A stretch of DNA of 64,000 bases from Syntrophomonadaceae bacterium (GTDB lineage: Bacteria > Bacillota > Syntrophomonadia > Syntrophomonadales > Syntrophomonadaceae), in assembly GCA_012518685.1 (NCBI GenBank), contig JAAYRQ010000032.1, positions 446-64,445 of the forward strand. Direction: 5' to 3'. The notes beneath the pieces are model-generated. The model made no database searches, had not been told where the DNA came from, and was given only the letters and a program-made list of their open reading frames with translations. Below are positions 3,613 to 49,082 of this stretch, piece after piece. Both the position numbers and the translations under genes were made by a program. The first letter of the stretch is position 1. Every line of letters begins with the position of its first letter.

Positions 3613-4497
3613 ATGGCAGGAGCAGGTGTAAGAGAATTTAAGCGGAGAATACGCAGTGTATCTAATACACAGCAGATTACCAAAGCTATGAAAATGGTAG
3701 CGGCTGCTAAGTTACGCCGTGCCCAAGAAAGAGCCGAAGCTGCAAGACCATACACGGATACCTTACAAGATACTTTAAGCAGATTAGCTGGAGTAGCCTT
3801 TGATATTTCTCACCCTTTACTTGAAAAAAGAGAAGATGTAAGAAAAGTAGGCTATATAGTGATTACTGCTGATAAAGGATTATGTGGGGCTTATAATACT
3901 AATATTATAAGAGCGGCAGTTAATGCTATGGAAGAAGATACTCGGGATATAGAAAAAGGGATTATTGCGGTTGGTCGTAAAAGCCGAGATTTTTTCCGTA
4001 AGCGTGGTGGTGTCGATGCAGAATTTGTCAACTTAGGTGACAATACTAATTATGCAGATGCTAGAGAAATTGGGCAGTATATTATTAATGCGTATGAAAA
4101 CGAAGAACTAGACGAAGTCTATGTAGTTTATGCACATTTTGTTAATGTTATTAGGCAAATTCCGACTGTAACTAAGATATTGCCTATAGAACCGCCAGGA
4201 AGTGAAGAAAAGACAGAAGAATACTTTGTAGAATATATTTATGAACCTAGTGCAGAGGAAATTCTGCTTTCATTATTACCAAGGTATATAGGTAGCCAAA
4301 TATTCCATGCCATGCTAGAGGGTAAAGCTAGTGAATTCGGTGCTAGGATGACGGCTATGGGTAATGCGACTGAAAATGCGGGTGAAATAATAGACGCTCT
4401 AACTATGGAAATGAACAAAGTTAGACAGGCCGCAATTACCGATGAAATACTAGATATTGTTGGCGGTGCGGAAGCTCTCAATAAAGGAGGAAAGTAG
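3613..4497 (+). CDS. atpG: F0F1 ATP synthase subunit gamma
   Basis: N-terminal IKRRIRSVSNTQQITKAMKMVAAAKLRRAQ and C-terminal NKVRQAAITDEILDIVGGAEAL signatures. Confidence 0.96.
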   Translation: MAGAGVREFKRRIRSVSNTQQITKAMKMVAAAKLRRAQERAEAARPYTDTLQDTLSRLAGVAFDISHPLLEKREDVRKVGYIVITADKGLCGAYNTNIIRAAVNAMEEDTRDIEKGIIAVGRKSRDFFRKRGGVDAEFVNLGDNTNYADAREIGQYIINAYENEELDEVYVVYAHFVNVIRQIPTVTKILPIEPPGSEEKTEEYFVEYIYEPSAEEILLSLLPRYIGSQIFHAMLEGKASEFGARMTAMGNATENAGEIIDALTMEMNKVRQAAITDEILDIVGGAEALNKGGK

Positions 4498-6933: not shown

Positions 6934-8982
6934 TTACATTTTAAAAAGTCCTAATAATTTGTCTAGTTCTGAGGCACTATTTTGTAATTCTTGAGCAACC
7001 TCATTTACCTCTATGGCTGCTTGTGTAGCATGTTCAGAGGCTTTGGCAATTTCTTGGGTTCCATAGGTTGATTCATTAACCGAAATAGAGTTAGCCTCCA
7101 CAGCATTATTAATTTCCGTCATAGCCGTCGAAATAAAGACTATATCTTGGCGTAAATTATTAGTGAGTTCATAAAAACTAGAGGCATCATTAAAATAACT
7201 TTCCCCAATGGTTTCCATCGCATTGTAGTCTCTTAGAATATCGATATTAATAAACTCTAAGAGTTTTTGGGAATTAGCCACTAAATTGTTAATAGCATTT
7301 TGTACTTGTTCGATTATAGTTTGGATGCCTGTAATAGTCTGGGAAGAATTCTCAGCTAATTTTCTAACTTCATCAGCAACTACAGCAAATCCCCGTCCAT
7401 GTTCCCCTGCTCTAGCGGCTTCAATAGCGGCATTTAAGGCTAATAAATTAGTCTGTTCAGCAATATATAAGATATTTTCGGATAGGCTAGCAATTTCTTC
7501 AACAACTTTTGCTTCATCTATAGCCGCTTTTACTTCCGTGTGGATTTCTCGATAAATAGAAGTAGTGTTTTCGCGGGCTTTAACGGCATTTTCTTGTATG
7601 TTTATGGCACTTTCTTTTATCGCTTGAACTTTTTCGTTTTCAGTAGCAATGTTTTCATTAAAGGTATTTAGCATAGAAGATACTTCTTCAGTGGAAGCAG
7701 TAATTTCTTGGATAGCTGCTGATACTTCCTCCATACCTGCGGCTATTTCTTCAGTGGAAGCGGAAGTTTCCTCCATAGTACCAGCTATGTTAGCACCTTG
7801 ATTAGTAAGTGTCTTACTGTAACCTGTTACTTCTTCAGACATATCTTTAATACTATTAATGAGATTTTTTTGCTGTTCTATCATTAGGTTTAGATGATTA
7901 GCTAAAATGCCTACTTCATCTTTACGGTCAATATTAACTTTTTCATCTAATTCTCCATTACTAGCTTTTACTATTACTCTTTGAATATCTAATAAAGGTT
8001 TAGTAAAGGAGTTGGCCATTAAGGTACTTGCTGCTATGGCTATTACTATAGCGATAAGGATTATAAATAATATAATAGATTTTACAGTATTTAAGCTCTT
8101 TAATATCTCATCAGTATAAGCATTAGAAACTAATATCCAGTCTAAGCCCTCAATCTCTTGATAAACAGAAATGACTTCGCGTTTTTTGCCGTTGGCATCA
8201 GCTAATTCATAAGTTATAAGCCCATTTTTTTCTGTCAGAACCCTTTCCATTATATGGACGCCATTAATATCAGCCATGCTTAATAGATTTTCACCTTTTT
8301 TATTAGGATGAATGATAGCATTACCCTCATTATCTAATATAAAAACATGCCCTGTTTCCCCAAATCTTAAATCTTTTAATACTTCATTTAATTCTTCGAT
8401 ATTTACCAGAGTATTAAATTCCGACTTAAAAGTTGAAGCTACGATAATTAAGTCCAAAGGCTCATAATATGTAGAATATTGTGCTTTGGGGAATTCTACC
8501 TCTTCACCAGGGTTCTTCCACATATATTCTTGGTATTGGATAGGATTTTCTAGCATTTTTTCTACGAACTCCATACCTCTAAAATTAGCCCCTTCTGTGG
8601 CTGCGGATGGGTGGATAGTGGCTATGCCTTCCATGTTAGCTCCGTACAAATACCCTGTATCACCAATCTTTTGACTAGTAATGATGGTTCTAATTTGCTG
8701 TTGTAACTGGCTTTCGCTAATATTTCCTGCCAGGTACTGGTAATAGTATTTTTCTACAATCTCTAAATTTTTATCTGCTATAGTTTGTAAATGATTTTTT
8801 ATATTACTTTCCAAATTATTTTCTACTAGATTAGTAATCGTGTTAGTAGATGAAGAAAGCTCAGCTACGGTGTTTTCAGTAATAATCTTACTAACCGTAA
8901 AAAGGGTTACTACACCCGTCAAAATTAATAAAAATAAAAAAATGATTAAATTATTAACCGTAAGTTTTGTCCTAACATTCAT
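6934..8982 (-). CDS. Methyl-accepting chemotaxis protein with double-Cache-like sensor domain
   Basis: TM, about 270-aa extracytoplasmic domain, TM, HAMP, then the conserved MCP signalling hairpin ([36 protein letters not shown]). Confidence 0.92.
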
Positions 8983-39930: not shown

Positions 39931-39983
39931 ATATAATCATTGTCAATCTGTGTCTATTTATTAATTAAAGTGAGGTTTTAAAT

Positions 39984-41759
39984 ATGTCGCTTTTCGGAAT
40001 GGAAATAGGAAAACGCTCGATTATGGCTCAACAAACCGCCTTAGAGGTTACGGGCCATAATATGGCTAATGCTAATACACCAGGCTATACTAGACAAATC
40101 CCTAACTTAGTTACAACTATTCCCTATCATACTCCCGCATTAACTAACAGCAATAAGGCAGGACAGCTAGGTACAGGGGTGAAGGTAGCAGATATAGAAA
40201 GAATTAGGGATGTTTTCTTAGATCAACAAATTAGGAATGAAGCTAAGACGGCTGGCTACTGGGATTCCATTCATGATGCCCTAGCTAAAATGGAAGTAAT
40301 ACTAAATGAACCTTCTTCAGATGGCTTACGGGCGGTAATGGATATGTACTGGGAATCTTGGCAAGACTTAACAGCCTATCCCGAATCAGAGGCAGTAAGG
40401 TCAACTGTGGCCCAAAGGGGCTTAGCCCTAGCAGATGCCTTCAACCACATGCATAAACAATTAACCGAATTACGAGAAGACTTGAATGCCTCAGTTGAAA
40501 TAAAGGTAAATGAGATTAATACCATTACTAAGCAAATTTCCGACCTTAATGCCCAAATATTAAATATCCAAATAGCGGGTAAACAGCCGAATGACTTAGA
40601 GGATAAAAGGGATTTATTACTGGATCAGCTTAGTCAGATAATAGATATAAAAACCTTTACCGACCATAATGGTATGGTAGCAGTTCAGTTAGGTGGTCGT
40701 ACCCTAGTCCAAGGTCGTGATTATACTGAATTAACTACTGAACAAGACTCCCAAGGTATGCACCTGGTTATTTGGGCAGATACCAAGGTAAGGGCAAGGA
40801 TAGAAAGCGGAGAATTAAGGGGCTATCTCGATGCTAGAGGTAAAACTAATTTATCACAGGAAAAAGATCCTTCCGAGTATCGGGAGATAGTGCCTAACTT
40901 ATTAGATGATTTGAACAAATTAGCCGAAACTATAATTAAACGGACTAATGAAATACATAAGACGGGATATAACTTGGATATAAACGCGGAATCACTCAAC
41001 TTTTACGAAATGCCGACTGGGGCTAATATAGAGTGGGCAGCTATCATTAAAGTAGAAGATGCGATTTTAAATGATCCCATGAAAATTGCAGCAGCAGAGG
41101 ACCCAACCTTTGACCCTGATACAGGAGAAAAAATCAATTTTGGGGATAGCCGCATAGCCATGGCGATTGCTAATTTAAAACATGATTATAATAGTGTAGG
41201 ACAAGTAGCACAATCAGGGAATTTACCAGGATTGCCTGCAACTATTTCAAATAAACATATAAACATCACCTATGATAATACTGTATATAACCTGATAATT
41301 GATGGGGATTTTGACAATAACCAACAATTAGCCGATGCGGTGCAAGCGGAGATAGATCGACACAGATTGCCGATTACGGTAGAAATGCAAGGTGATCGTA
41401 TGGTTATGAGTTCATTTGATAAAGGATTCGAGTCGGTGGAATGGTTTTGGGGTGCGACTTCTGATACTGCCCCGACTTCTGGCTCTATTTCCGATGCGAC
41501 GGTAGATGATTTTTGGCGTTCTGTATGTGCTAATATCGGAGTTAGGAGTCAGGAATCGGTGCGGATGTTAGATAATCAGATAGTCTTATTAAGTGAACTA
41601 ACTAACAAAAAAGAAGCCGTTTCTGGGGTGAATTTAGATGAAGAAGTAATTAATATGATAAAATTCCAACACGCCTACAACGCCGCCTCCCGCTTCATCA
41701 CCACCATGGACGAAGCCATAGATGTAATAGTAAATAGAATGGGGCTAGTGGGACGGTAG
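39984..41759 (+). CDS. flgK: Flagellar hook-associated protein 1 FlgK
   Basis: N-terminus LEVTGHNMANANTPGYTRQ and C-terminus MIKFQHAYNAASRFITTMDEAIDVIVNRMG. Confidence 0.96.
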   Translation: MSLFGMEIGKRSIMAQQTALEVTGHNMANANTPGYTRQIPNLVTTIPYHTPALTNSNKAGQLGTGVKVADIERIRDVFLDQQIRNEAKTAGYWDSIHDALAKMEVILNEPSSDGLRAVMDMYWESWQDLTAYPESEAVRSTVAQRGLALADAFNHMHKQLTELREDLNASVEIKVNEINTITKQISDLNAQILNIQIAGKQPNDLEDKRDLLLDQLSQIIDIKTFTDHNGMVAVQLGGRTLVQGRDYTELTTEQDSQGMHLVIWADTKVRARIESGELRGYLDARGKTNLSQEKDPSEYREIVPNLLDDLNKLAETIIKRTNEIHKTGYNLDINAESLNFYEMPTGANIEWAAIIKVEDAILNDPMKIAAAEDPTFDPDTGEKINFGDSRIAMAIANLKHDYNSVGQVAQSGNLPGLPATISNKHINITYDNTVYNLIIDGDFDNNQQLADAVQAEIDRHRLPITVEMQGDRMVMSSFDKGFESVEWFWGATSDTAPTSGSISDATVDDFWRSVCANIGVRSQESVRMLDNQIVLLSELTNKKEAVSGVNLDEEVINMIKFQHAYNAASRFITTMDEAIDVIVNRMGLVGR

Positions 41760-41825
41760 TTATTGAATTAAACACTGATTCGCTTTGCGAATACACAGAT
41801 ATTTTGGATTTTCACGGATTTTTTA
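41760..41825 (-). repeat. GxxExxY-cassette flanking repeat, copy A (inverted relative to copies B and C)
   Basis: The reverse complement reads AAAAAATCCGTGAAAATCCAAAATATCTGTGTA[ttcgcaaagcgaa]TCAGTGTTTAATTCAA. It starts 1 nt after the flgK stop and carries an extra 6-bp-stem palindrome (41778-41792). Confidence 0.75.
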
Positions 41826-41847
41826 AACTGATTCGGTGACAGTACAA

Positions 41848-41874
41848 TTGATGAAATGATAGGTAAGGTATAAT
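41848..41874 (+). promoter_or_regulatory. Possible own promoter of the GxxExxY gene
   Basis: TTGATG (41848-41853), a rather short 15-nt spacer, then TATAAT (41869-41874). Confidence 0.35.
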
Positions 41875-41890
41875 TTTGGGGATTTATGTT

Positions 41891-42262
41891 ATGGATGAAA
41901 GATTTCTATATGGAGATATTACCGATAAAATTATAGGAAGTGCGTATAAGGTATATAACACACTAGGAACAGGCTTTTTAGAAAAGGTATATGAAAATGC
42001 TTTAAAACATGAATTAGAGAAAAACGGTTTAAAGGTTATGCAACAGTATCCTATAAAAGTCTATTATGAAGAGAAAGTAGTAGGGGAATATTTTGCAGAT
42101 TTACTTGTAGAAGACAAAGTCATTGTAGAATTAAAGGTTGCTAGTGCAATTAATACGATACACGAGGTACAAATTATTAATTATTTAAAGGCGACCAAAA
42201 TAAGAGTGGGGTTACTAATTAACTTTGGTAATGAGATAAAGATAAAAAGAAAAATTGTATAA
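41891..42262 (+). CDS. GxxExxY family protein (PD-(D/E)XK nuclease-fold superfamily)
   Basis: 123 aa with the eponymous motif GFLEKVYENAL near the N-terminus, then a D...ELK core (ADLLVEDKVIVELKV) and the C-terminal INFG motif. ATG 41891 lies 8 nt after TGGGGA. Confidence 0.85.
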   Translation: MDERFLYGDITDKIIGSAYKVYNTLGTGFLEKVYENALKHELEKNGLKVMQQYPIKVYYEEKVVGEYFADLLVEDKVIVELKVASAINTIHEVQIINYLKATKIRVGLLINFGNEIKIKRKIV

Positions 42263-42306
42263 ATTCTAATTGAAAAAAGCACCCGAAGGGTGTTGAAAAT
42301 AATAAA

Positions 42307-42359
42307 GAAAAATCTGTGTAAATCCGAACCATCCGTGAAAATCTGTGTTGAATTAAAAA
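42307..42359 (+). repeat. GxxExxY-cassette flanking repeat, copy B
   Basis: AAAAATCTGTGTAAATCCGAACCATCCGTGAAAATCTGTGTTGAATTAAAAA: four ATCYG(T/A) units phased at about 10 bp. It ends 8 nt before the flgL RBS. Confidence 0.75.
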
Positions 42360-42377
42360 CATTTGGAGGTAGAAGCA

Positions 42378-43316
42378 ATGATTAGAGTTACCAACACCAT
42401 GCTAGTAAACGAACTTACTCGCAACTTAAATACCAATATGCGGCTAATGGAAAAATACCATCGCCAATTAGAAACAGGCCGCAAAATAAATAGACCTTCA
42501 GATGATCCAGCAGGCTTAGTAAAATCTTTGCGTCTAAGGACTAGCCTTACCGAGGGACAGCAATATATAGGCAACATCCACGAAGCGATTAACTTTATGG
42601 AAACCACCGATGCAGCATTTGATAATATAGGTAGTATTATTCATAGAATAAGGGTATTAACAGTTAATGCCGCTAATACAGGGGTAAATGATGCAGGAGC
42701 CTTAAATGCTATTGCCGATGAAATAGAAGAATTAAATGACCAATTAAAAATGATAGCCAATACGACCTATGGCTCAAAACATGTATTTGCAGGCACTAAT
42801 ATTACTGAACAACCCTTTAGGGGAGGAACTCCACCAGACCATTGGGCTGGTAATAATAATAACCTAGAATTAGAGATAGCGATAGGAGTTAAGATGCCAA
42901 TCAACCTAACTGATGAGGCGATGAATAATTTTTTTACAAAATATGATGATATAGATGGGAACTCTATTGATGGAGGAATATTTGCCCTAGTTGAGAAAAT
43001 CGGACAGGATATAAGGGCTGTTGCAGATGGTGATACAAGTATAAGTATAGGAGAGAATCTAACCCTGCTAGATAGCAAAATGGAAGACCTACTTTCAGCC
43101 CGTTCAGCAATTGGGGCGAAGATAAACCGCCTAGAACTACAGTTAAATAGGCTAGAATCAACCCAAATATCCTATACGGAATTACTATCGAAAAACGAAG
43201 ATGCTGACCAGGCTGAAGTAATAATGTATCTAAAAATACAAGAAACTGTCTATAGAGCTTCACTAGCGGCAGGGGCCAGAATAATCCAACCTAGCCTAAT
43301 AGATTTTATTAGATAG
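42378..43316 (+). CDS. flgL: Flagellar hook-associated protein 3 FlgL
   Basis: N-terminus MIRVTNTMLVNE...LETGRKINRPSDDPAG and a flagellin-like C-terminus. ATG 42378 lies 7 nt after GGAGG. Confidence 0.93.
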   Translation: MIRVTNTMLVNELTRNLNTNMRLMEKYHRQLETGRKINRPSDDPAGLVKSLRLRTSLTEGQQYIGNIHEAINFMETTDAAFDNIGSIIHRIRVLTVNAANTGVNDAGALNAIADEIEELNDQLKMIANTTYGSKHVFAGTNITEQPFRGGTPPDHWAGNNNNLELEIAIGVKMPINLTDEAMNNFFTKYDDIDGNSIDGGIFALVEKIGQDIRAVADGDTSISIGENLTLLDSKMEDLLSARSAIGAKINRLELQLNRLESTQISYTELLSKNEDADQAEVIMYLKIQETVYRASLAAGARIIQPSLIDFIR

Positions 43317-43382
43317 CTGGGATGAATAGATACTGATTTCTTTATTAATAAATCGGTGTCTATTAAAAAAGGGGGCCAAAAG

Positions 43383-43940: not shown

Positions 43941-44031
43941 AAGTAAGAGGGTGGGGCGAATTCACAAGCATAATCGCCGAAATAAAAAACGGTTCAAATT
44001 CATTTGAAACAATAATTAAAAAACAAAAAAT

Positions 44032-44081
44032 AAATCCGTGTAAATCCAAAACATCTGTAAAAATCAGTGTTGAATTAAAAA
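44032..44081 (+). repeat. Solo copy (C) of the GxxExxY-associated repeat
   Basis: AAATCCGTGTAAATCCAAAACATCTGTAAAAATCAGTGTTGAATTAAAAA directly abuts the fliW RBS (AGGAGG 44081-44086). No GxxExxY ORF is attached. Confidence 0.75.
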
Positions 44082-44839: not shown

Positions 44840-46300
44840 ATGTACGGAATTAGCAATATTCGTTTCGGCGGTATAGCAAGTGGATTAGACACTGATGGCA
44901 TCGTAAAAAAATTAATGCAAGTCGAACAAATGAAAATCGATCGATTTCAGCAACAAAAAACTCTATTAGAGTGGAAAAGAGCTGATTATCGCTCCATTAA
45001 TAACCAGTTAAGAACCTTTAGAGAAGGTGCCAGTTGGAATCTTAGTATGGAAAAAACCTTTATGTCCAAAATGGCTACCACTACTAATGATAGTTTCTTT
45101 AATGTGACAGCTACCAATAATGCAGCAGCAGGTAATTATAGCTTTGAAGTAAAACAACTAGCAGAAGGGGTAACAGTAGCAGGGGATTTAACTGGCAAGA
45201 GCGTTGAGGACTTTTTTACTGAGAATAATATAGAGGAAGTTACCTTTGCTATTAATGGTCAGGATGTAACAATTAGTAAAGGCGATGATTATACAGATAT
45301 AGTTGATAAAATAAATGCCTTAAGTGCAGAAACGGGAGTTAGAGCCATTTACGAAGGAAGTATGGAGCGTTTCTTTTTATTCACAGAAGCAACAGGTGTA
45401 GGGGCTAAAATAGAAATAACGGATAATAACAGTTTTACAAATCAAGTATTAGGACTAGAAGAAAGTGTAAACCAAACGGGTAAAAATGCTATAATGGCCT
45501 TTAATGGCATTGACTTGGAATTTACTTCAAACAGTTTTGAATTTATAGGTTTGAACTTCGACTTGAAAAAGGCAGCCCTAGGCGAAATCGTTAATGTGCA
45601 AGTAAGCAATAATGTTGACCAGATAGTTGATGAGATAAAAGCCTTTGTAGAGACCTATAATAATATAATAGATGACCTAGGTACTAAACTATCCGAAAAA
45701 CGCTATCGGGATTTTCCTCCATTGACAGAAGAACAAAAGGCAGATATGAAGGAAAAGGATATTGAAGCTTGGGAAGAAAAAGCTCGTAGTGGTCTATTTA
45801 GGACAGATCCCTTATTAAGTAATATTGCCTCAGATATGCGAATGACAGTAGGTAACGCGGTTACAGGATTGGAAGGGAAGTATAAGACTCTATCATCTAT
45901 CGGTATTACTACTTCCCCAGATTGGAAGGATAATGGTAAGTTATATATCGATGAAGATAAGTTAAGGGCAGCCCTAGCAGAGGATCCAGATGGGGTAGCT
46001 AAAATATTTAATAATGATGAAGCCAACAGCCAAGGTATAGCCAAGCAGTTAAACAGTAAAATAACTGGCTATTTTGAAAAAATAGCTACTACTGCAGGAA
46101 GGGCTACAGATATTTATGATGAAAGCTATTTAGGCAAAGAAATAATGAACATGGATGAGCGTATCGACACCATGCAGTTAAGGATGCAGATGTTAGAGGA
46201 AAAATACTGGCGGCAATTCGCTGCCATGGAAACAGCCCTGCAACAAATGCAATCCCAAGGTGACTGGATTGCAGCCCAATTGGGTGTAGGTCTGGCCTAA
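44840..46300 (+). CDS. fliD: Flagellar filament cap protein FliD
   Basis: N-terminal GGIASGLDTDGIVKKLMQVEQ, central cap domains and C-terminal MEEKYWRQFAAMETALQQMQSQ. Confidence 0.94.
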   Translation: MYGISNIRFGGIASGLDTDGIVKKLMQVEQMKIDRFQQQKTLLEWKRADYRSINNQLRTFREGASWNLSMEKTFMSKMATTTNDSFFNVTATNNAAAGNYSFEVKQLAEGVTVAGDLTGKSVEDFFTENNIEEVTFAINGQDVTISKGDDYTDIVDKINALSAETGVRAIYEGSMERFFLFTEATGVGAKIEITDNNSFTNQVLGLEESVNQTGKNAIMAFNGIDLEFTSNSFEFIGLNFDLKKAALGEIVNVQVSNNVDQIVDEIKAFVETYNNIIDDLGTKLSEKRYRDFPPLTEEQKADMKEKDIEAWEEKARSGLFRTDPLLSNIASDMRMTVGNAVTGLEGKYKTLSSIGITTSPDWKDNGKLYIDEDKLRAALAEDPDGVAKIFNNDEANSQGIAKQLNSKITGYFEKIATTAGRATDIYDESYLGKEIMNMDERIDTMQLRMQMLEEKYWRQFAAMETALQQMQSQGDWIAAQLGVGLA

Positions 46301-46330
46301 ATAACATAAAAACAAATTTCAAAAACCACC

Positions 46331-46353
46331 TAGCGGCGAAAACTTCGCCGCTA
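46331..46353 (+). terminator. Terminator-like hairpin after fliD
   Basis: TAGCGGCGAAAACTTCGCCGCTA is a perfect 9-bp stem. The following T-run is weak (AATTTAT). Confidence 0.5.
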
Positions 46354-46395
46354 AATTTATGCCATAACCCCCATCCTAACACCCCCCCCCTCCCT

Positions 46396-46560
46396 GTCAT
46401 TCTGACACTCGAAAGAGTGGAAGAATCTTAAAACCTATGCCTAAGGGTCAAGATCCTTCACTCCGTTCAGGATGACAATCAATCTAACTAAGCCCAGCCC
46501 CCCCCATGTCACCCAGAGCTAATCTTTTTTGTGTCATTCTGAGCGATAGCGAAGAATCTT
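46396..46560. repeat. Cluster of three REP-like GTCATYCTGA... elements with two poly-C tracts
   Basis: GTCATTCTGACACTCGAAAGAGTGGAAGAATCT (46396-46428, +). AGATCCTTCACTCCGTTCAGGATGAC (46451-46476, reverse). GTCATTCTGAGCGATAGCGAAGAATCTT (46533-46560, +). C9 at 46382-46390 and C8 at 46498-46505. Confidence 0.7.
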
Positions 46561-46666
46561 AAAAGAACATAAGCAGAGAATAATTAGCACCATCTTTCCT
46601 ACCTTAAATATTTGCCTCACCATAATCAAATGATTATATCCCTTAATAGGGAGTGTGATATCAAAT

Positions 46667-46882
46667 ATGTATAAGATAATTAGGCAACCAAAAGTTTTTA
46701 AGAAACTTGTTTATCAAAATTCTACAGGCAATAAAAGTCTTGATTATATAAAAGCAACTATGCTATATGAAGACCTAGACCTACCTACAGATCTACTAAA
46801 AATAGTTTCTGACAATATCAATGATAAAATTACTAATCAAGAAGCGGGAAGTAAAATCCTAAAAAAATATGGATTAGCATAA
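46667..46882 (+). CDS. VbhA-like Fic antitoxin candidate
   Basis: 71 aa. TMLYED resembles the inhibitory [ST]xxxE[GN] motif but has D at the last position. The tail ITNQEAGSKILKKYGL resembles the VbhA family. The stop TAA lies 1 nt before the fic ATG. Confidence 0.5.
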   Translation: MYKIIRQPKVFKKLVYQNSTGNKSLDYIKATMLYEDLDLPTDLLKIVSDNINDKITNQEAGSKILKKYGLA

Positions 46883-46883
46883 T

Positions 46884-47523
46884 ATGTACACTTCCTCAGA
46901 CAATATATATTGTTATCCTCATACAAACATCTTGAAAAACAAATTTCGCATTATGGATGAAGCCGTCTTAGTTGCCGTTGAAAGGGATCTAACGACTTAA
47001 AGATTGGCGGAATTACTACGAAAACCTATAGATGGGGATTTTAATCTTAAGCATTTACAATTTATTCATAAATTCATATTTCAAGATTTATATATCTGGG
47101 CAGGCAAATTAAGGGAAATAAGGATATCAAAAGGTATTACATTTGCATATCCCGAGTATATAAAAATAGAAACTAATAAACTTTTTAGCTTATTAAAAAA
47201 AAGAAAACTATTTAAGAGGAATGCCACTTGATGAATTATGTGAAAGGCTTGCATACTATAAAGCAGAGTTAAATATGATACATCCTTTTAGAGATGGTAA
47301 TGGAAGGACTATTCGGGAATTTATTCGCTAGCTAGTTAATTTTAATAACTATGAAATATTATTCCCAATAGATAAAACAGAATACCAAGAAGCTATGATG
47401 CAATCGCCATTCGATACAAGTCTTCTGGGAGATTTTTTAAAAGCAATATTCATAAGACATAAAATCACTACACCCACATCCCCCAGCCAACCACACCAGA
47501 TAAACCCCGAAAACCACAGTTAA
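46884..47523 (+). pseudogene. fic: Fic/DOC family (AMPylase) toxin gene, inactivated
   Basis: N-terminus YCYPHTNILKNKFRI and Fic motif HPFRDGNGRTIREF (47281-47322) are present. The frame is broken by an in-frame TAA (46998-47000), a +1 frameshift at an A8 run (47195-47202) and an in-frame TAG (47329-47331). Confidence 0.88.
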
Positions 47524-47560
47524 AACACCCTAATCACCCAGAACCGCCCTACAACAACTT

Positions 47561-47587
47561 TTAACCAAAAGAAAATCTACCCGATAA
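47561..47587 (+). promoter_or_regulatory. Sigma-D (sigma-28)-type promoter of the flagellin gene
   Basis: TTAA-N15-CCCGATAA, compared with the Bacillus consensus TAAA-N15-GCCGATAT. It implies a leader of about 250 nt. Confidence 0.55.
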
Positions 47588-47791
47588 CTAATACTAACAG
47601 CACAAGCTGATATTAAACTCCTAGACGAAAGGGCAAGGAGGTCAATTAGTCGAAAGGTCGATACTAATTAATCCTACTTCCCTATCAACCTCGTAGAGGC
47701 GAAATTACAACCTTAATAGTGAAGCATTAGCGAGACATTGGGAGTGCCCCAGGGTAATCGCCGACAAGGAAAGGTATCACTCGTGCTAACA

Positions 47792-47811
47792 CCTAAGCAA
47801 GGAAGCTAAGG
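47792..47811 (+). promoter_or_regulatory. Candidate CsrA binding hairpin (BS1-like) in the flagellin leader
   Basis: CCTAAGC-AAGGAA-GCTAAGG: a 7-bp stem (one mismatch) presenting GGA in a 6-nt loop, 17 nt upstream of the SD-overlapping CAAGGAGGA. Confidence 0.5.
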
Positions 47812-47828
47812 TGAAAAAAATTAAAATT

Positions 47829-47838
47829 CAAGGAGGAA
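47829..47838 (+). promoter_or_regulatory. Flagellin Shine-Dalgarno overlapping a CsrA-type CAAGGAGGA motif (BS2-like)
   Basis: CAAGGAGGAA lies 5 nt upstream of ATG 47844. Confidence 0.55.
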
Positions 47839-47843
47839 TAATA

Positions 47844-49082
47844 ATGATAATTAATCACAACTTAATGGCCATGAATACCCATAGACAACTAAGCTTGAAT
47901 AATGCAGCAGGTGCAAAATCCACCGAAAAATTATCTTCTGGTTTCAGAATTAACCGGGCAGGAGATGACGCAGCAGGTCTAGCTATCTCGGAAAAAATGA
48001 GAGGGCAAATTAGGGGACTTAATCAAGCTTCTAGGAACTCCCAAGATGGTATTTCTTTAATCCAAACTGCTGAAGGTGCACTTAATGAAACTCATGCCAT
48101 TTTGCAAAGGATGAGAGAATTAGCTGTTCAATCTGCGACTGATACTAATACCTCAGCTGATAGGGTTAATATCCAAGATGAAATTAATCAATTAACCAAA
48201 GAAATTACTAGGATTGCTGATACAACTGAATTCAACACCATGAAGCTTTTAGATGGCTCAAAAGGTGGCGGAGTAGCTACTGGGGTAGCAAATGTACAAA
48301 CAAATGCTGCATTGACTGCTTCAGGTGGTGCTGCCATTGCAGCAAGCACGACATTGCTAAAGCTCTTTGATACAGCAGGAAATAACTTAGGTATTGTAGC
48401 TGGAGATAAAATTACTATATCCTTTGTGAAAAATGGAGAACTTAACGAGAAAGTAGTTACAGTTGCTGCTGATACAGCATTATCTGCCTTAACTGCTACA
48501 GGTTCTTTTGCGACATCAGCAACCACTGGTGGAAGTCTAGTTTTTACTGCTAGTGGAGCCGGATTTGAAGGAGCGGTTCATGGAGTTACTATTAAGGTAG
48601 AGAGTGCAGATGGTGAAGTAAAAACTGCAGCAACTAATGCCCTATCAGCCTTTAAGGAGACTGTAGCTGCCCAAAATAAGAGACAGGACGGTACAGCTAC
48701 CTTGCAAATAGGGGCTAACGAGGGACAAGAAGTAAAACTGGCTATAGAAAATATCACAGCCAAAGCACTAGGGGTGGAAAACCTTCAAGTTGGTCAGCGT
48801 ACACAAGCTAGTGTAGCTATTAATGTTATTGACGGTGCTATAGTTAAGGTTTCGGCCGAAAGATCCAAATTAGGGGCTATGCAAAATCGGCTAGAACATA
48901 CTATCAAGAACTTAGACACTTCTTCAGAAAACTTACAAGCTGCAGAAGCTCGGATTAGAGACCTAGACATTGCTAAGGAAATGATGGAGTTTACTAAGAA
49001 TAGTATTCTTCAACAAGCTGCAACTGCAATGTTGGCACAAGCCAACCAAGTGCCACAATCAGTATTACAACTATTAAGATAA
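47844..49082 (+). CDS. hag: Flagellin
   Basis: N-terminus MIINHNLMAMNTHRQL and C-terminus QAATAMLAQANQVPQSVLQLLR, with a central Ala/Thr/Ser/Gly-rich variable domain. The ATG at 47844 is preferred over the track GTG at 47811. Confidence 0.96.
   Translation: MIINHNLMAMNTHRQLSLNNAAGAKSTEKLSSGFRINRAGDDAAGLAISEKMRGQIRGLNQASRNSQDGISLIQTAEGALNETHAILQRMRELAVQSATDTNTSADRVNIQDEINQLTKEITRIADTTEFNTMKLLDGSKGGGVATGVANVQTNAALTASGGAAIAASTTLLKLFDTAGNNLGIVAGDKITISFVKNGELNEKVVTVAADTALSALTATGSFATSATTGGSLVFTASGAGFEGAVHGVTIKVESADGEVKTAATNALSAFKETVAAQNKRQDGTATLQIGANEGQEVKLAIENITAKALGVENLQVGQRTQASVAINVIDGAIVKVSAERSKLGAMQNRLEHTIKNLDTSSENLQAAEARIRDLDIAKEMMEFTKNSILQQAATAMLAQANQVPQSVLQLLR

Follow-up and report, generated by a model that had tools for sequence, protein, structure and literature searches.

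Among the described systems that tie short bacterial repeats to a gene, the one that the element considered here most resembles in its working is REPIN/RAYT, in which repetitive extragenic palindromic (REP) sequences arranged in doublets (REPIN) are associated with a REP-associated tyrosine transposase (RAYT) (PMC3116915, PMC3337134). Our element is a cassette of 618 bp which parts flgK from flgL in the late flagellar operon of a Syntrophomonadaceae bacterium (contig JAAYRQ010000032.1, positions 446 to 64,445; this whole stretch of 64 kb is called the window below), and which contains a 123-residue gene of the GxxExxY family between two inverted arms. As in REPIN/RAYT, one enzyme gene is flanked in the window by its own short inverted repeats, this enzyme appears to be under purifying selection, and gene-less inverted doublets occur in intergenic regions, often within operons (in the window and in L005, L007 and L094 to L097, the L-numbers designating comparison loci from relatives and metagenomes). 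The features that define REPIN/RAYT are different, however: RAYT is a Y1 HUH transposase of the IS200/IS605 type, while the cassette gene matches only PF13366/TIGR04256, and a REP is a palindrome of 20–40 nt with a GTAG or CGTC tag, while the arms of the cassette are arrays of 9–10-nt ATCNGTG units.

A second point of comparison is provided by the intervening sequences (IVS) of 23S rRNA that bear an open reading frame (ORF) of the S23p/PF05635 family (PMC4990558). Like these, the cassette consists of a small ORF between inverted repeats that are predicted to form a stem in the transcript; its insertion into a transcribed region leaves the function of that region in place, and its distribution is sporadic. 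A PF05635 gene is even found in the same place in L004, the nearest genome. Unlike an rRNA IVS, the cassette is hosted by an mRNA operon spacer and not by an rRNA helix, and its ORF encodes a putative nuclease rather than a four-helix bundle.

Two other classes have to be considered. Free-standing homing endonuclease genes are exemplified by the seg and mob genes of T-even phages, and I-Ssp6803I is a homing enzyme of the PD-(D/E)XK type. The cassette shares with them a nuclease-type gene in the spacer between conserved co-transcribed genes, presence or absence among relatives and, in one pair of genomes, a lower divergence than that of the flanking sequence; it differs from them in having palindromic unit arrays on its two sides, which are also found where there is no gene, and in showing no visible co-conversion tract beside it, where flanking identity is confounded (see below). 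With insertion sequences and miniature inverted-repeat transposable elements it shares terminal inverted repeats, gene-bearing and gene-less forms, and insertion polymorphism. Contrary to those, it encodes no transposase of the DDE, serine or tyrosine class, its ends are multi-unit arrays, and a clear target-site duplication is not visible.

Junction states in the flagellar operon of Syntrophomonadaceae

The late flagellar operon of the window reads flgM-flgN-flgK-insert-flgL-DUF6470-fliW-csrA-fliD. The initial annotation, made from the sequence of the window, had placed a 123-residue GxxExxY gene in the operon orientation between flgK and flgL, and the ORF and its profile matches are indeed found there. 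The window derives from an uncultured bacterium of a biogas-fermenter metagenome, and an identical protein is encoded on contigs of ENA ERZ925077, ERZ773357 and run SRR3184648. The nearest genome to the window is a Syntrophomonadaceae metagenome-assembled genome whose FlgL is 81% identical.

The flgK–flgL junction is not the same in all relatives. In L097 (GCA_900198705.1, FlgL 62% identical) the sites are compact and empty, with gaps of 21 nt at flgN–flgK, 5 nt at flgK–flgL and 10 nt at flgL–DUF6470. L005, whose proteins are 71% (FlgL), 74% (FlgK) and 87% (GxxExxY) identical in amino acids to those of the window, has the same cassette at flgK–flgL and, additionally, a gene-less arm pair at flgN–flgK. 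A GxxExxY gene (63–72% amino acid identity) sits between inverted arms one junction upstream, at flgN–flgK, in L007, L009 to L013, L094 and L095; gene-less pairs are present at flgK–flgL and flgL–DUF6470 in L007 and L094, and at flgL–DUF6470 only in L095, these pairs having been scored only in contigs that reach the junctions concerned. L096 (Candidatus Syntrophocurvum alkaliphilum, FlgL 61% identical) has gene-less pairs at four junctions and a different gene, of the PF05635 family, at flgN–flgK. In L004, the closest genome (FlgK 93% identical in amino acids), the flgK–flgL junction is occupied by a PF05635 gene, which encodes a four-helix-bundle protein of the 23S rRNA IVS type and has inverted AATTNNN heptamer arrays on either side. 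Arm units are present at the DUF6470–fliW junction of all four relatives inspected, even in L097, which is compact elsewhere. A ribosome-binding site (RBS) for the next gene follows the right arm of the element at a distance of 5–20 nt.

The junction is polymorphic in the way that a mobile cassette predicts, being found empty, filled, decayed, displaced by one junction or replaced. The idea of a mobile cassette at an operon junction, already put forward in the initial annotation, holds as regards insertion polymorphism, while the role of the nuclease in moving the element is something that we can only infer.

The comparison of the window with L005 bears on the age of the cassette. DNA identity is 78–93% in the cassette, against 30–62% in the body of flgK and about 68% in flgL, and the proportion of synonymous differences (pS) is 0.47 for the GxxExxY gene, against 0.80 for flgK and 0.73 for flgL. 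The value of 0.47 is below saturation, because GxxExxY genes from other junctions reach 0.69–0.88. L004 is a nearer host than L005 and yet has no GxxExxY gene. The simplest reading of these comparisons would be that the cassette arrived at the junction, or was refreshed there, after the hosts diverged. When the window and L005 are compared, the flanks show increased identity only over the final 120 nt or so of flgK, which is a conserved C-terminal coding region and cannot be distinguished from a conversion tract; with flanking identity confounded in this manner, no co-conversion tract is visible in flgK or flgL. Regarding the gene-less forms, two observations in L007 speak for copying from site to site. 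The flgK–flgL element of L007 keeps the post-gene hairpin and the right arm of the window cassette, and looks like an internal-deletion derivative of a window-type cassette. The left arm at flgL–DUF6470 in L007 is nearly identical to that of the GxxExxY cassette of the same locus once the nested inserts described below are removed (compared by eye).

Elements of a second family are seen at the same flagellar junctions. They consist of inverted AATTNNN heptamer arrays, with or without a PF05635/TIGR02436 gene (Table 1). Heptamer arrays also flank three unrelated PF05635 genes, in L099, L101 and L102, which brings the cases to only five altogether; apart from these, no further four-helix-bundle genes were found among the loci gathered for comparison. 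There is possibly a third array type, made of ACGTAAA-like units (gacgtaaaacgtaaacagacgtaagg), in flagellar-operon spacers of L095 (4881–4920) and L094 (6674–6740). In L004 the spacer after flgL (6967–7228) is made of two tandem copies of some 130 nt, both ending in a right-arm-like array (GAATTCAGTGTAAATCAGCGAAATTCAGTGGCTATT), and the contig breaks there, probably owing to the repeat. Last, we note in L005, L007 and L008 a nested insert of 36–48 nt (CAACCTTARTRGTGA...CCCCAGGG, ±2 nt), whose point of entry into an arm unit is invariably the same, with ATCYG on one side of it and TGTT on the other. This insert may represent a very small secondary mobile element with the unit as its target, or else it could mark the position at which the unit is cut.

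Repeat units and their association with GxxExxY genes

Each arm of the cassette, of about 50–55 nt, is composed of three to four tandem units, each made of ATC-N-GTG and 2–3 further bases, with a pitch of 9–11 nt, the units reading CAC-N-GAT in the left arm and ATC-N-GTG in the right arm. The left arm contains CACTGAT (41773), CACAGAT (41794), CACGGAT (41813) and a GGATTT half unit, and the right arm ATCTGTG (42312), an AAATCC half unit, ATCCGTG (42331) and ATCTGTG (42341). A repeat finder returns the inverted repeat 41794–41823/42308–42337, which is 80% complementary over 30 nt with a perfect core of 13 nt, and the Smith–Waterman score of one flank against the other is 30, compared to a mean of 17 and a maximum of 23 in 20 shuffles. 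The gene is therefore bracketed by two inverted copies of one repeat, as first described, and full alignment sets the approximate limits of the arms at the positions given in Table 1. The hairpin TTCGCTTTGCGAA of the left arm is common to the orthologous cassette of L005 in the arm alignment.

The initial inventory of repeats was correct for the two arms, but it missed a solo arm, a mini-pair and a lone unit in the same operon. Over 50 nt the solo arm has 88% identity with the right arm (blastn E 8e-10), and a degenerate version of the internal hairpin module of L007 precedes it. The mini-pair is an 18-nt inverted repeat, 83% complementary, whose halves are 4 nt apart. The lone unit has the same unit and TCTAT end as the mini-pair half at 43347–43364, and is probably the remnant of an arm. 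No unit clusters were found in the 64 kb beyond those in the flagellar operon, and single units are not enriched across the window (42 seen versus about 62 expected).

A metagenome scan for GxxExxY genes gave 80 loci, of which 67 have usable flanks and 64 complete flanks. The repeats are associated with these other GxxExxY genes as well: unit arrays are present in at least one flank in 58 of the 64 loci, and in both flanks in 42. The similarity between upstream and downstream flanks exceeds that of every shuffle in 58/67 loci (inverted in 45, direct in 36). Two units or more are seen in 76% of 144 flank windows, compared to 8.8% of 909 control windows; 79 of the 124 spacings between units measure 9 or 10 nt, and the unit is not constrained at its fourth base. 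The architecture of a gene plus arrays is found in unrelated gene contexts across phyla, with no rRNA or tRNA context at any of the 80 loci according to Rfam. When the orientation of the gene is compared to that of both neighbours, it is co-oriented in 26 cases and opposed in 2.

The type of unit varies with the clade of the protein. The 18 loci that have ATCCTGT units all belong to a single clade, with 66.5% protein identity within it versus 51.8% to the ATCNGYG type, and the two loci with TTCTGTG units pair together in the protein tree.

Some loci of this set have peculiarities of their own. L022, L040 and L043 contain two GxxExxY genes within 1–2 kb, each with its own arrays, as multi-copy families in a single genome would be expected to give. 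At ATCCTGT-type loci (L021, L027, L028, L036, L041) the arrays on either side are often direct and not inverted; it may be that the gene sits there between successive arms rather than inside a pair. L021 also has two inverted copies of the Rfam Acido-Lenti-1 RNA motif (4288–4332 on the minus strand, 4448–4492 on the plus strand) about 1.5 kb downstream of its GxxExxY gene, unrelated in sequence to the unit arrays.

Several identities were considered for the repeats. A direct match of 9–13 nt, TTGAATTAA, is present at both ends of the element and recurs at the solo arm, but it was not retained as a target-site duplication, of which no clear instance is visible: the near-palindromic AATT end of the arms explains the match, which is a property of the arm and not of the target. 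CsrA or CodY sites were dismissed because the GGA is not conserved in the unit, and also because GxxExxY genes outside flagellar contexts have the same arrays in their flanks. Nor does the sequence correspond to DnaA boxes. No Rfam family matches the arms or the nested insert, either in E-value mode (region of the window and four relatives) or in gathering mode (80 loci).

The GxxExxY protein and its expression

The protein matches TIGR04256 (145.4 bits versus a cut-off of 35, E 8.5e-43) and PF13366 (144.6 bits versus a cut-off of 22, E 2e-42). It has the motif G28-F-L-E31-K-V-Y34 and the catalytic-type residues D70, E80 and K82 of the PD-(D/E)XK fold; G28, E31, Y34, E35, D70, E80, K82 and Q94 are invariant in an alignment of 71 sequences. 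The AlphaFold2 model built from this alignment (pLDDT 95.2) has the order helix-helix-strand-strand-strand-helix-strand-strand. Its Foldseek matches against the PDB are at the level of the fold only: they are Cas4 SSO0001 (4ic1, E 6e-4, TM 0.57), lambda exonuclease, Hjc (a Holliday-junction resolvase of archaea), tRNA-splicing endonucleases and the homing enzyme I-Bth0305I. A sequence search of the PDB gave no solved relative. Between the window and L005, the ratio of non-synonymous to synonymous substitutions (dN/dS) is 0.08, a value that indicates strong purifying selection on the ORF. Judging from the sequences and from the model, the gene appears to encode a maintained putative nuclease whose catalytic motif is intact.

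A survey of PD-(D/E)XK families describes PF13366 as "function unknown, multiple transfers" (PMC3424549). The GxxExxY family comprises at least 7,970 clusters at E ≤ 1e-10, and identity is 60–70% across Syntrophomonadaceae, Anaerolineae, Brocadiia, Ignavibacteria and others. The protein has no PADLOC or PHROGs match, on which ground a defence system or a phage gene was dropped as an explanation, and scans of IMG/VR with the GxxExxY and PF05635 families confirmed no copy on viral contigs.

The gene had also been given a candidate promoter of its own, which is not supported by the analysis. The spacer of this candidate is 15 nt and its −10 box, TATAAT at 41869–41874, is only 16 nt from the ATG, so that a transcript initiated there would lack most of the RBS; a sigma-70 scan found no promoter at the proposed site upstream of the gene. 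Expression by operon read-through is more likely. Two other parts of the initial annotation are borne out: the T-run of the hairpin that follows the gene is confined to the minus strand, and the operon is left intact, since the gene is co-oriented, the only terminator-like hairpin is antisense and the RBS of flgL comes after the right arm. This hairpin (CACCCTTCGGGTG) is conserved in L005 and in the gene-less element of L007.

In the minimum free energy and centroid folds of the transcript, the left arm pairs with the right arm and a long stem encloses the gene, with a z-score of only −2. When 14 arms from four genomes are aligned, complementarity within pairs is 67–80%, while the identity of unrelated arms averages 73%. 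There is no pair-specific covariation, and the free central base of the unit is often mismatched between partners. As far as the alignment goes, the conserved feature is the sequence of the unit together with a roughly helical spacing, and not the pairing partner, a pattern that protein recognition would fit better than selection for a particular stem.

The positions of these features, of the host genes and of the related elements in other loci are collected in Table 1. We also note that the 1.5 kb between fliD and the flagellin gene (47811–49082) of the window, at 46300–47810, contain short ORFs only; one of these, of 75 residues (47004–47231, FIHKFIFQDLYIWAGKLREIRISKG), resembles by eye a part of a Fic/DOC-type domain.

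Table 1. Coordinates of the cassette, of related repeats and of host features (window positions unless a locus is named)
Feature	Position	Strand	Remarks
flgK (hook-associated protein 1)	39984–41759	+	Upstream host gene; TIGR02492, E 3.3e-110
Left arm	41760–41826	−	Directly after flgK stop codon; reverse complement of right-arm consensus
Hairpin TTCGCTTTGCGAA, 13 nt	41779–41791		Inserted in left arm; folds as side hairpin
RBS GGGGA of GxxExxY gene	41878–41882	+	8 nt 5' of ATG; conserved in L005
GxxExxY/PDDEXK_3 gene, 123 residues	41891–42262	+	Only ORF of the element
GC-rich hairpin CACCCTTCGGGTG	42280–42292	−	T-run on minus strand only; antisense-terminator-like
Right arm	42303–42360	+	Ends in GTGTTGAATTAAAAA
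RBS GGAGG of flgL	42365–42369	+	3' of right arm
flgL	42378–43316	+	Downstream host gene; TIGR02550, E 7e-72; 312 residues in other assemblies
Single terminal unit ATCTGTGTCTAT (ATCTGTG-TCTAT)	39946–39957	+	In otherwise short flgN–flgK spacer
Gene-less mini-pair AATAGATACTGAT...ATCGGTGTCTATT	43325–43364		flgL–DUF6470 spacer
Solo right arm	44026–44081	+	Just 5' of fliW RBS; orientation as right arm
Heptamer-array elements	L004 5537–6000; L096 1894–2600, 4827–5000, 7548–7727, 9558–9700; L094 6780–6879		
Nested inserts	L005 4437–4490; L007 4412–4460, 7585–7620, 7648–7700; L008 ~1063		

A palindromic element with a putative nuclease, and its alternatives

We lean slightly towards the view that the cassette is an insertion-polymorphic palindromic element, whose central gene encodes a nuclease that would recognise and cut the ATC-N-GTG units, the cut driving the copying of the element. 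The nuclease would recognise several ATC-N-GTG sites, whose spacing falls just short of one helical turn and whose central base is free, and would cut DNA at the units of the arms. The cut may then promote the copying of the element to new spacers, or into gene-less pairs by repair using the homology of the arms. Transcription of the gene would depend on operon read-through, and its translation on the RBS of the gene itself. The element would be tolerated as it is co-oriented with the operon, contains a putative antisense terminator and none on the sense strand, and leaves or supplies an RBS for the next gene.

A number of points weigh against this proposal. To our knowledge, PD-(D/E)XK enzymes cut DNA and do not catalyse strand transfer alone, so that the "paste" step has no candidate enzyme, and neither a clear target-site duplication nor a defined cleavage site was found in the analysis. 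The signal of a cassette younger than its host comes from one pair only, window and L005, while the cassettes of L094 and L095 diverge about as much as their hosts and look vertically inherited. The unit patterns were written after the flanks had been inspected, which makes the enrichment count partly post hoc, contrary to the shuffle test of the flanks. The co-variation of units and protein clades could mirror a shared host lineage and not recognition. The conservation of the protein over distant taxa is unusual for a purely selfish nuclease, and could point to a function for the host. Nuclease activity, DNA binding and transposition are only putative for every member of the GxxExxY family.

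Three other explanations were considered. The arms may be RNA elements that serve the host, as stabilisers of the REP or bacterial interspersed mosaic element (BIME) type or as RNase III sites, and that uncouple the expression of flagellar genes, in which case the GxxExxY gene would be a passenger or would encode an RNA-level factor acting on the hairpins. The position of the elements, inside a co-transcribed operon and always just 5' of the RBS of the next gene, agrees with this idea, as do the predicted folds that pair the arms and close the cassette in a long stem, the persistence of arm units at DUF6470–fliW in all four relatives examined, L097 included, and the tRNA-splicing endonucleases among the fold matches. 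We nevertheless regard it as unlikely, considering that complementarity within pairs equals the similarity of unrelated arms with no pair-specific covariation, that partners often mismatch at the unconstrained central base of the unit, that the z-score of the fold is only −2 and that L097 has no element at three junctions; besides, the same architecture occurs in unrelated contexts across phyla, and the invariant D...ExK residues suit a metal-dependent DNA nuclease. The predicted pairing of the arms in the transcript would also be expected of a selfish insertion of the IVS type, which RNase III would neutralise by removing the repeat stem, and which would spread by recombination or by an unknown trans factor, the encoded protein being dispensable for mobility. 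The IVSs of Coxiella and Leptospira bear ORFs, are bounded by inverted repeats, are cut by RNase III and are sporadic (PMC4990558), and PF05635 genes do occur in the flagellar operon, between inverted arms at flgK–flgL in L004 and at flgN–flgK in L096. But none of the 80 metagenomic GxxExxY loci adjoins rRNA, the complementarity of the arms is modest (about 73%) and is not maintained pair by pair, and the dN/dS of 0.08 contrasts with the ORF of the Coxiella IVS, which is reported to be decaying (PMC4990558). These observations make an IVS-type origin quite improbable.

Last, the elements could be an ancient and fixed feature inherited from the ancestor of the family, the present patchwork resulting from differential deletion and local rearrangement only. 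It is so that L094 and L095 share a flgN–flgK cassette whose divergence is similar to that of host genes, that the flagellar GxxExxY genes of Syntrophomonadaceae are neighbours in the protein tree, and that the flgK–flgL element of L007 looks like a deletion derivative of the window cassette. This scenario would however require an ancestor with elements at every junction, and it leaves unexplained the two genes with two arm types at one junction (L004 versus the window), the same gene at two junctions, the near-identical left arms of L007 at two junctions (seen by eye), and the cassette of the window and L005 that is far less diverged than the flanking genes; we consider it very unlikely. A nuclease that would act on its own arms is the reading that we retain in what follows.

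No description of the association between the gene and the repeats was found in the searchable literature, which is itself incomplete, so that this is absence of evidence only. The cassette looks like one member of a widespread class of elements, apparently undescribed in that literature. On a tentative and more speculative level, GxxExxY genes and ATC-N-GTG arrays might form an unrecognised, phylum-spanning class of self-propagating elements, a PD-(D/E)XK counterpart of REPIN/RAYT, paralleled by a class that combines PF05635 with heptamer arrays and competes for the same junctions, and of which ORF-bearing rRNA IVSs would be the special case that ended up in rRNA.

PF13366 and PF05635 are both very large families, each with more than 7,900 clusters among the matches listed. 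If this broader proposal is true, palindromic repeat elements would have these proteins as their active cores, which would account for two abundant "hypothetical" families and would give an origin to numerous short repeats in intergenic regions, as well as to the spurious small ORFs that are read across these. The spread of ORF-bearing rRNA intervening sequences would have a concrete and testable model, and this type of nuclease would join the short list of enzymes that maintain miniature repeats in bacteria. As for the flagellar operon of Syntrophomonadaceae, it would be a case in which an essential and tightly packed operon absorbs repeated insertions at nearly every junction.

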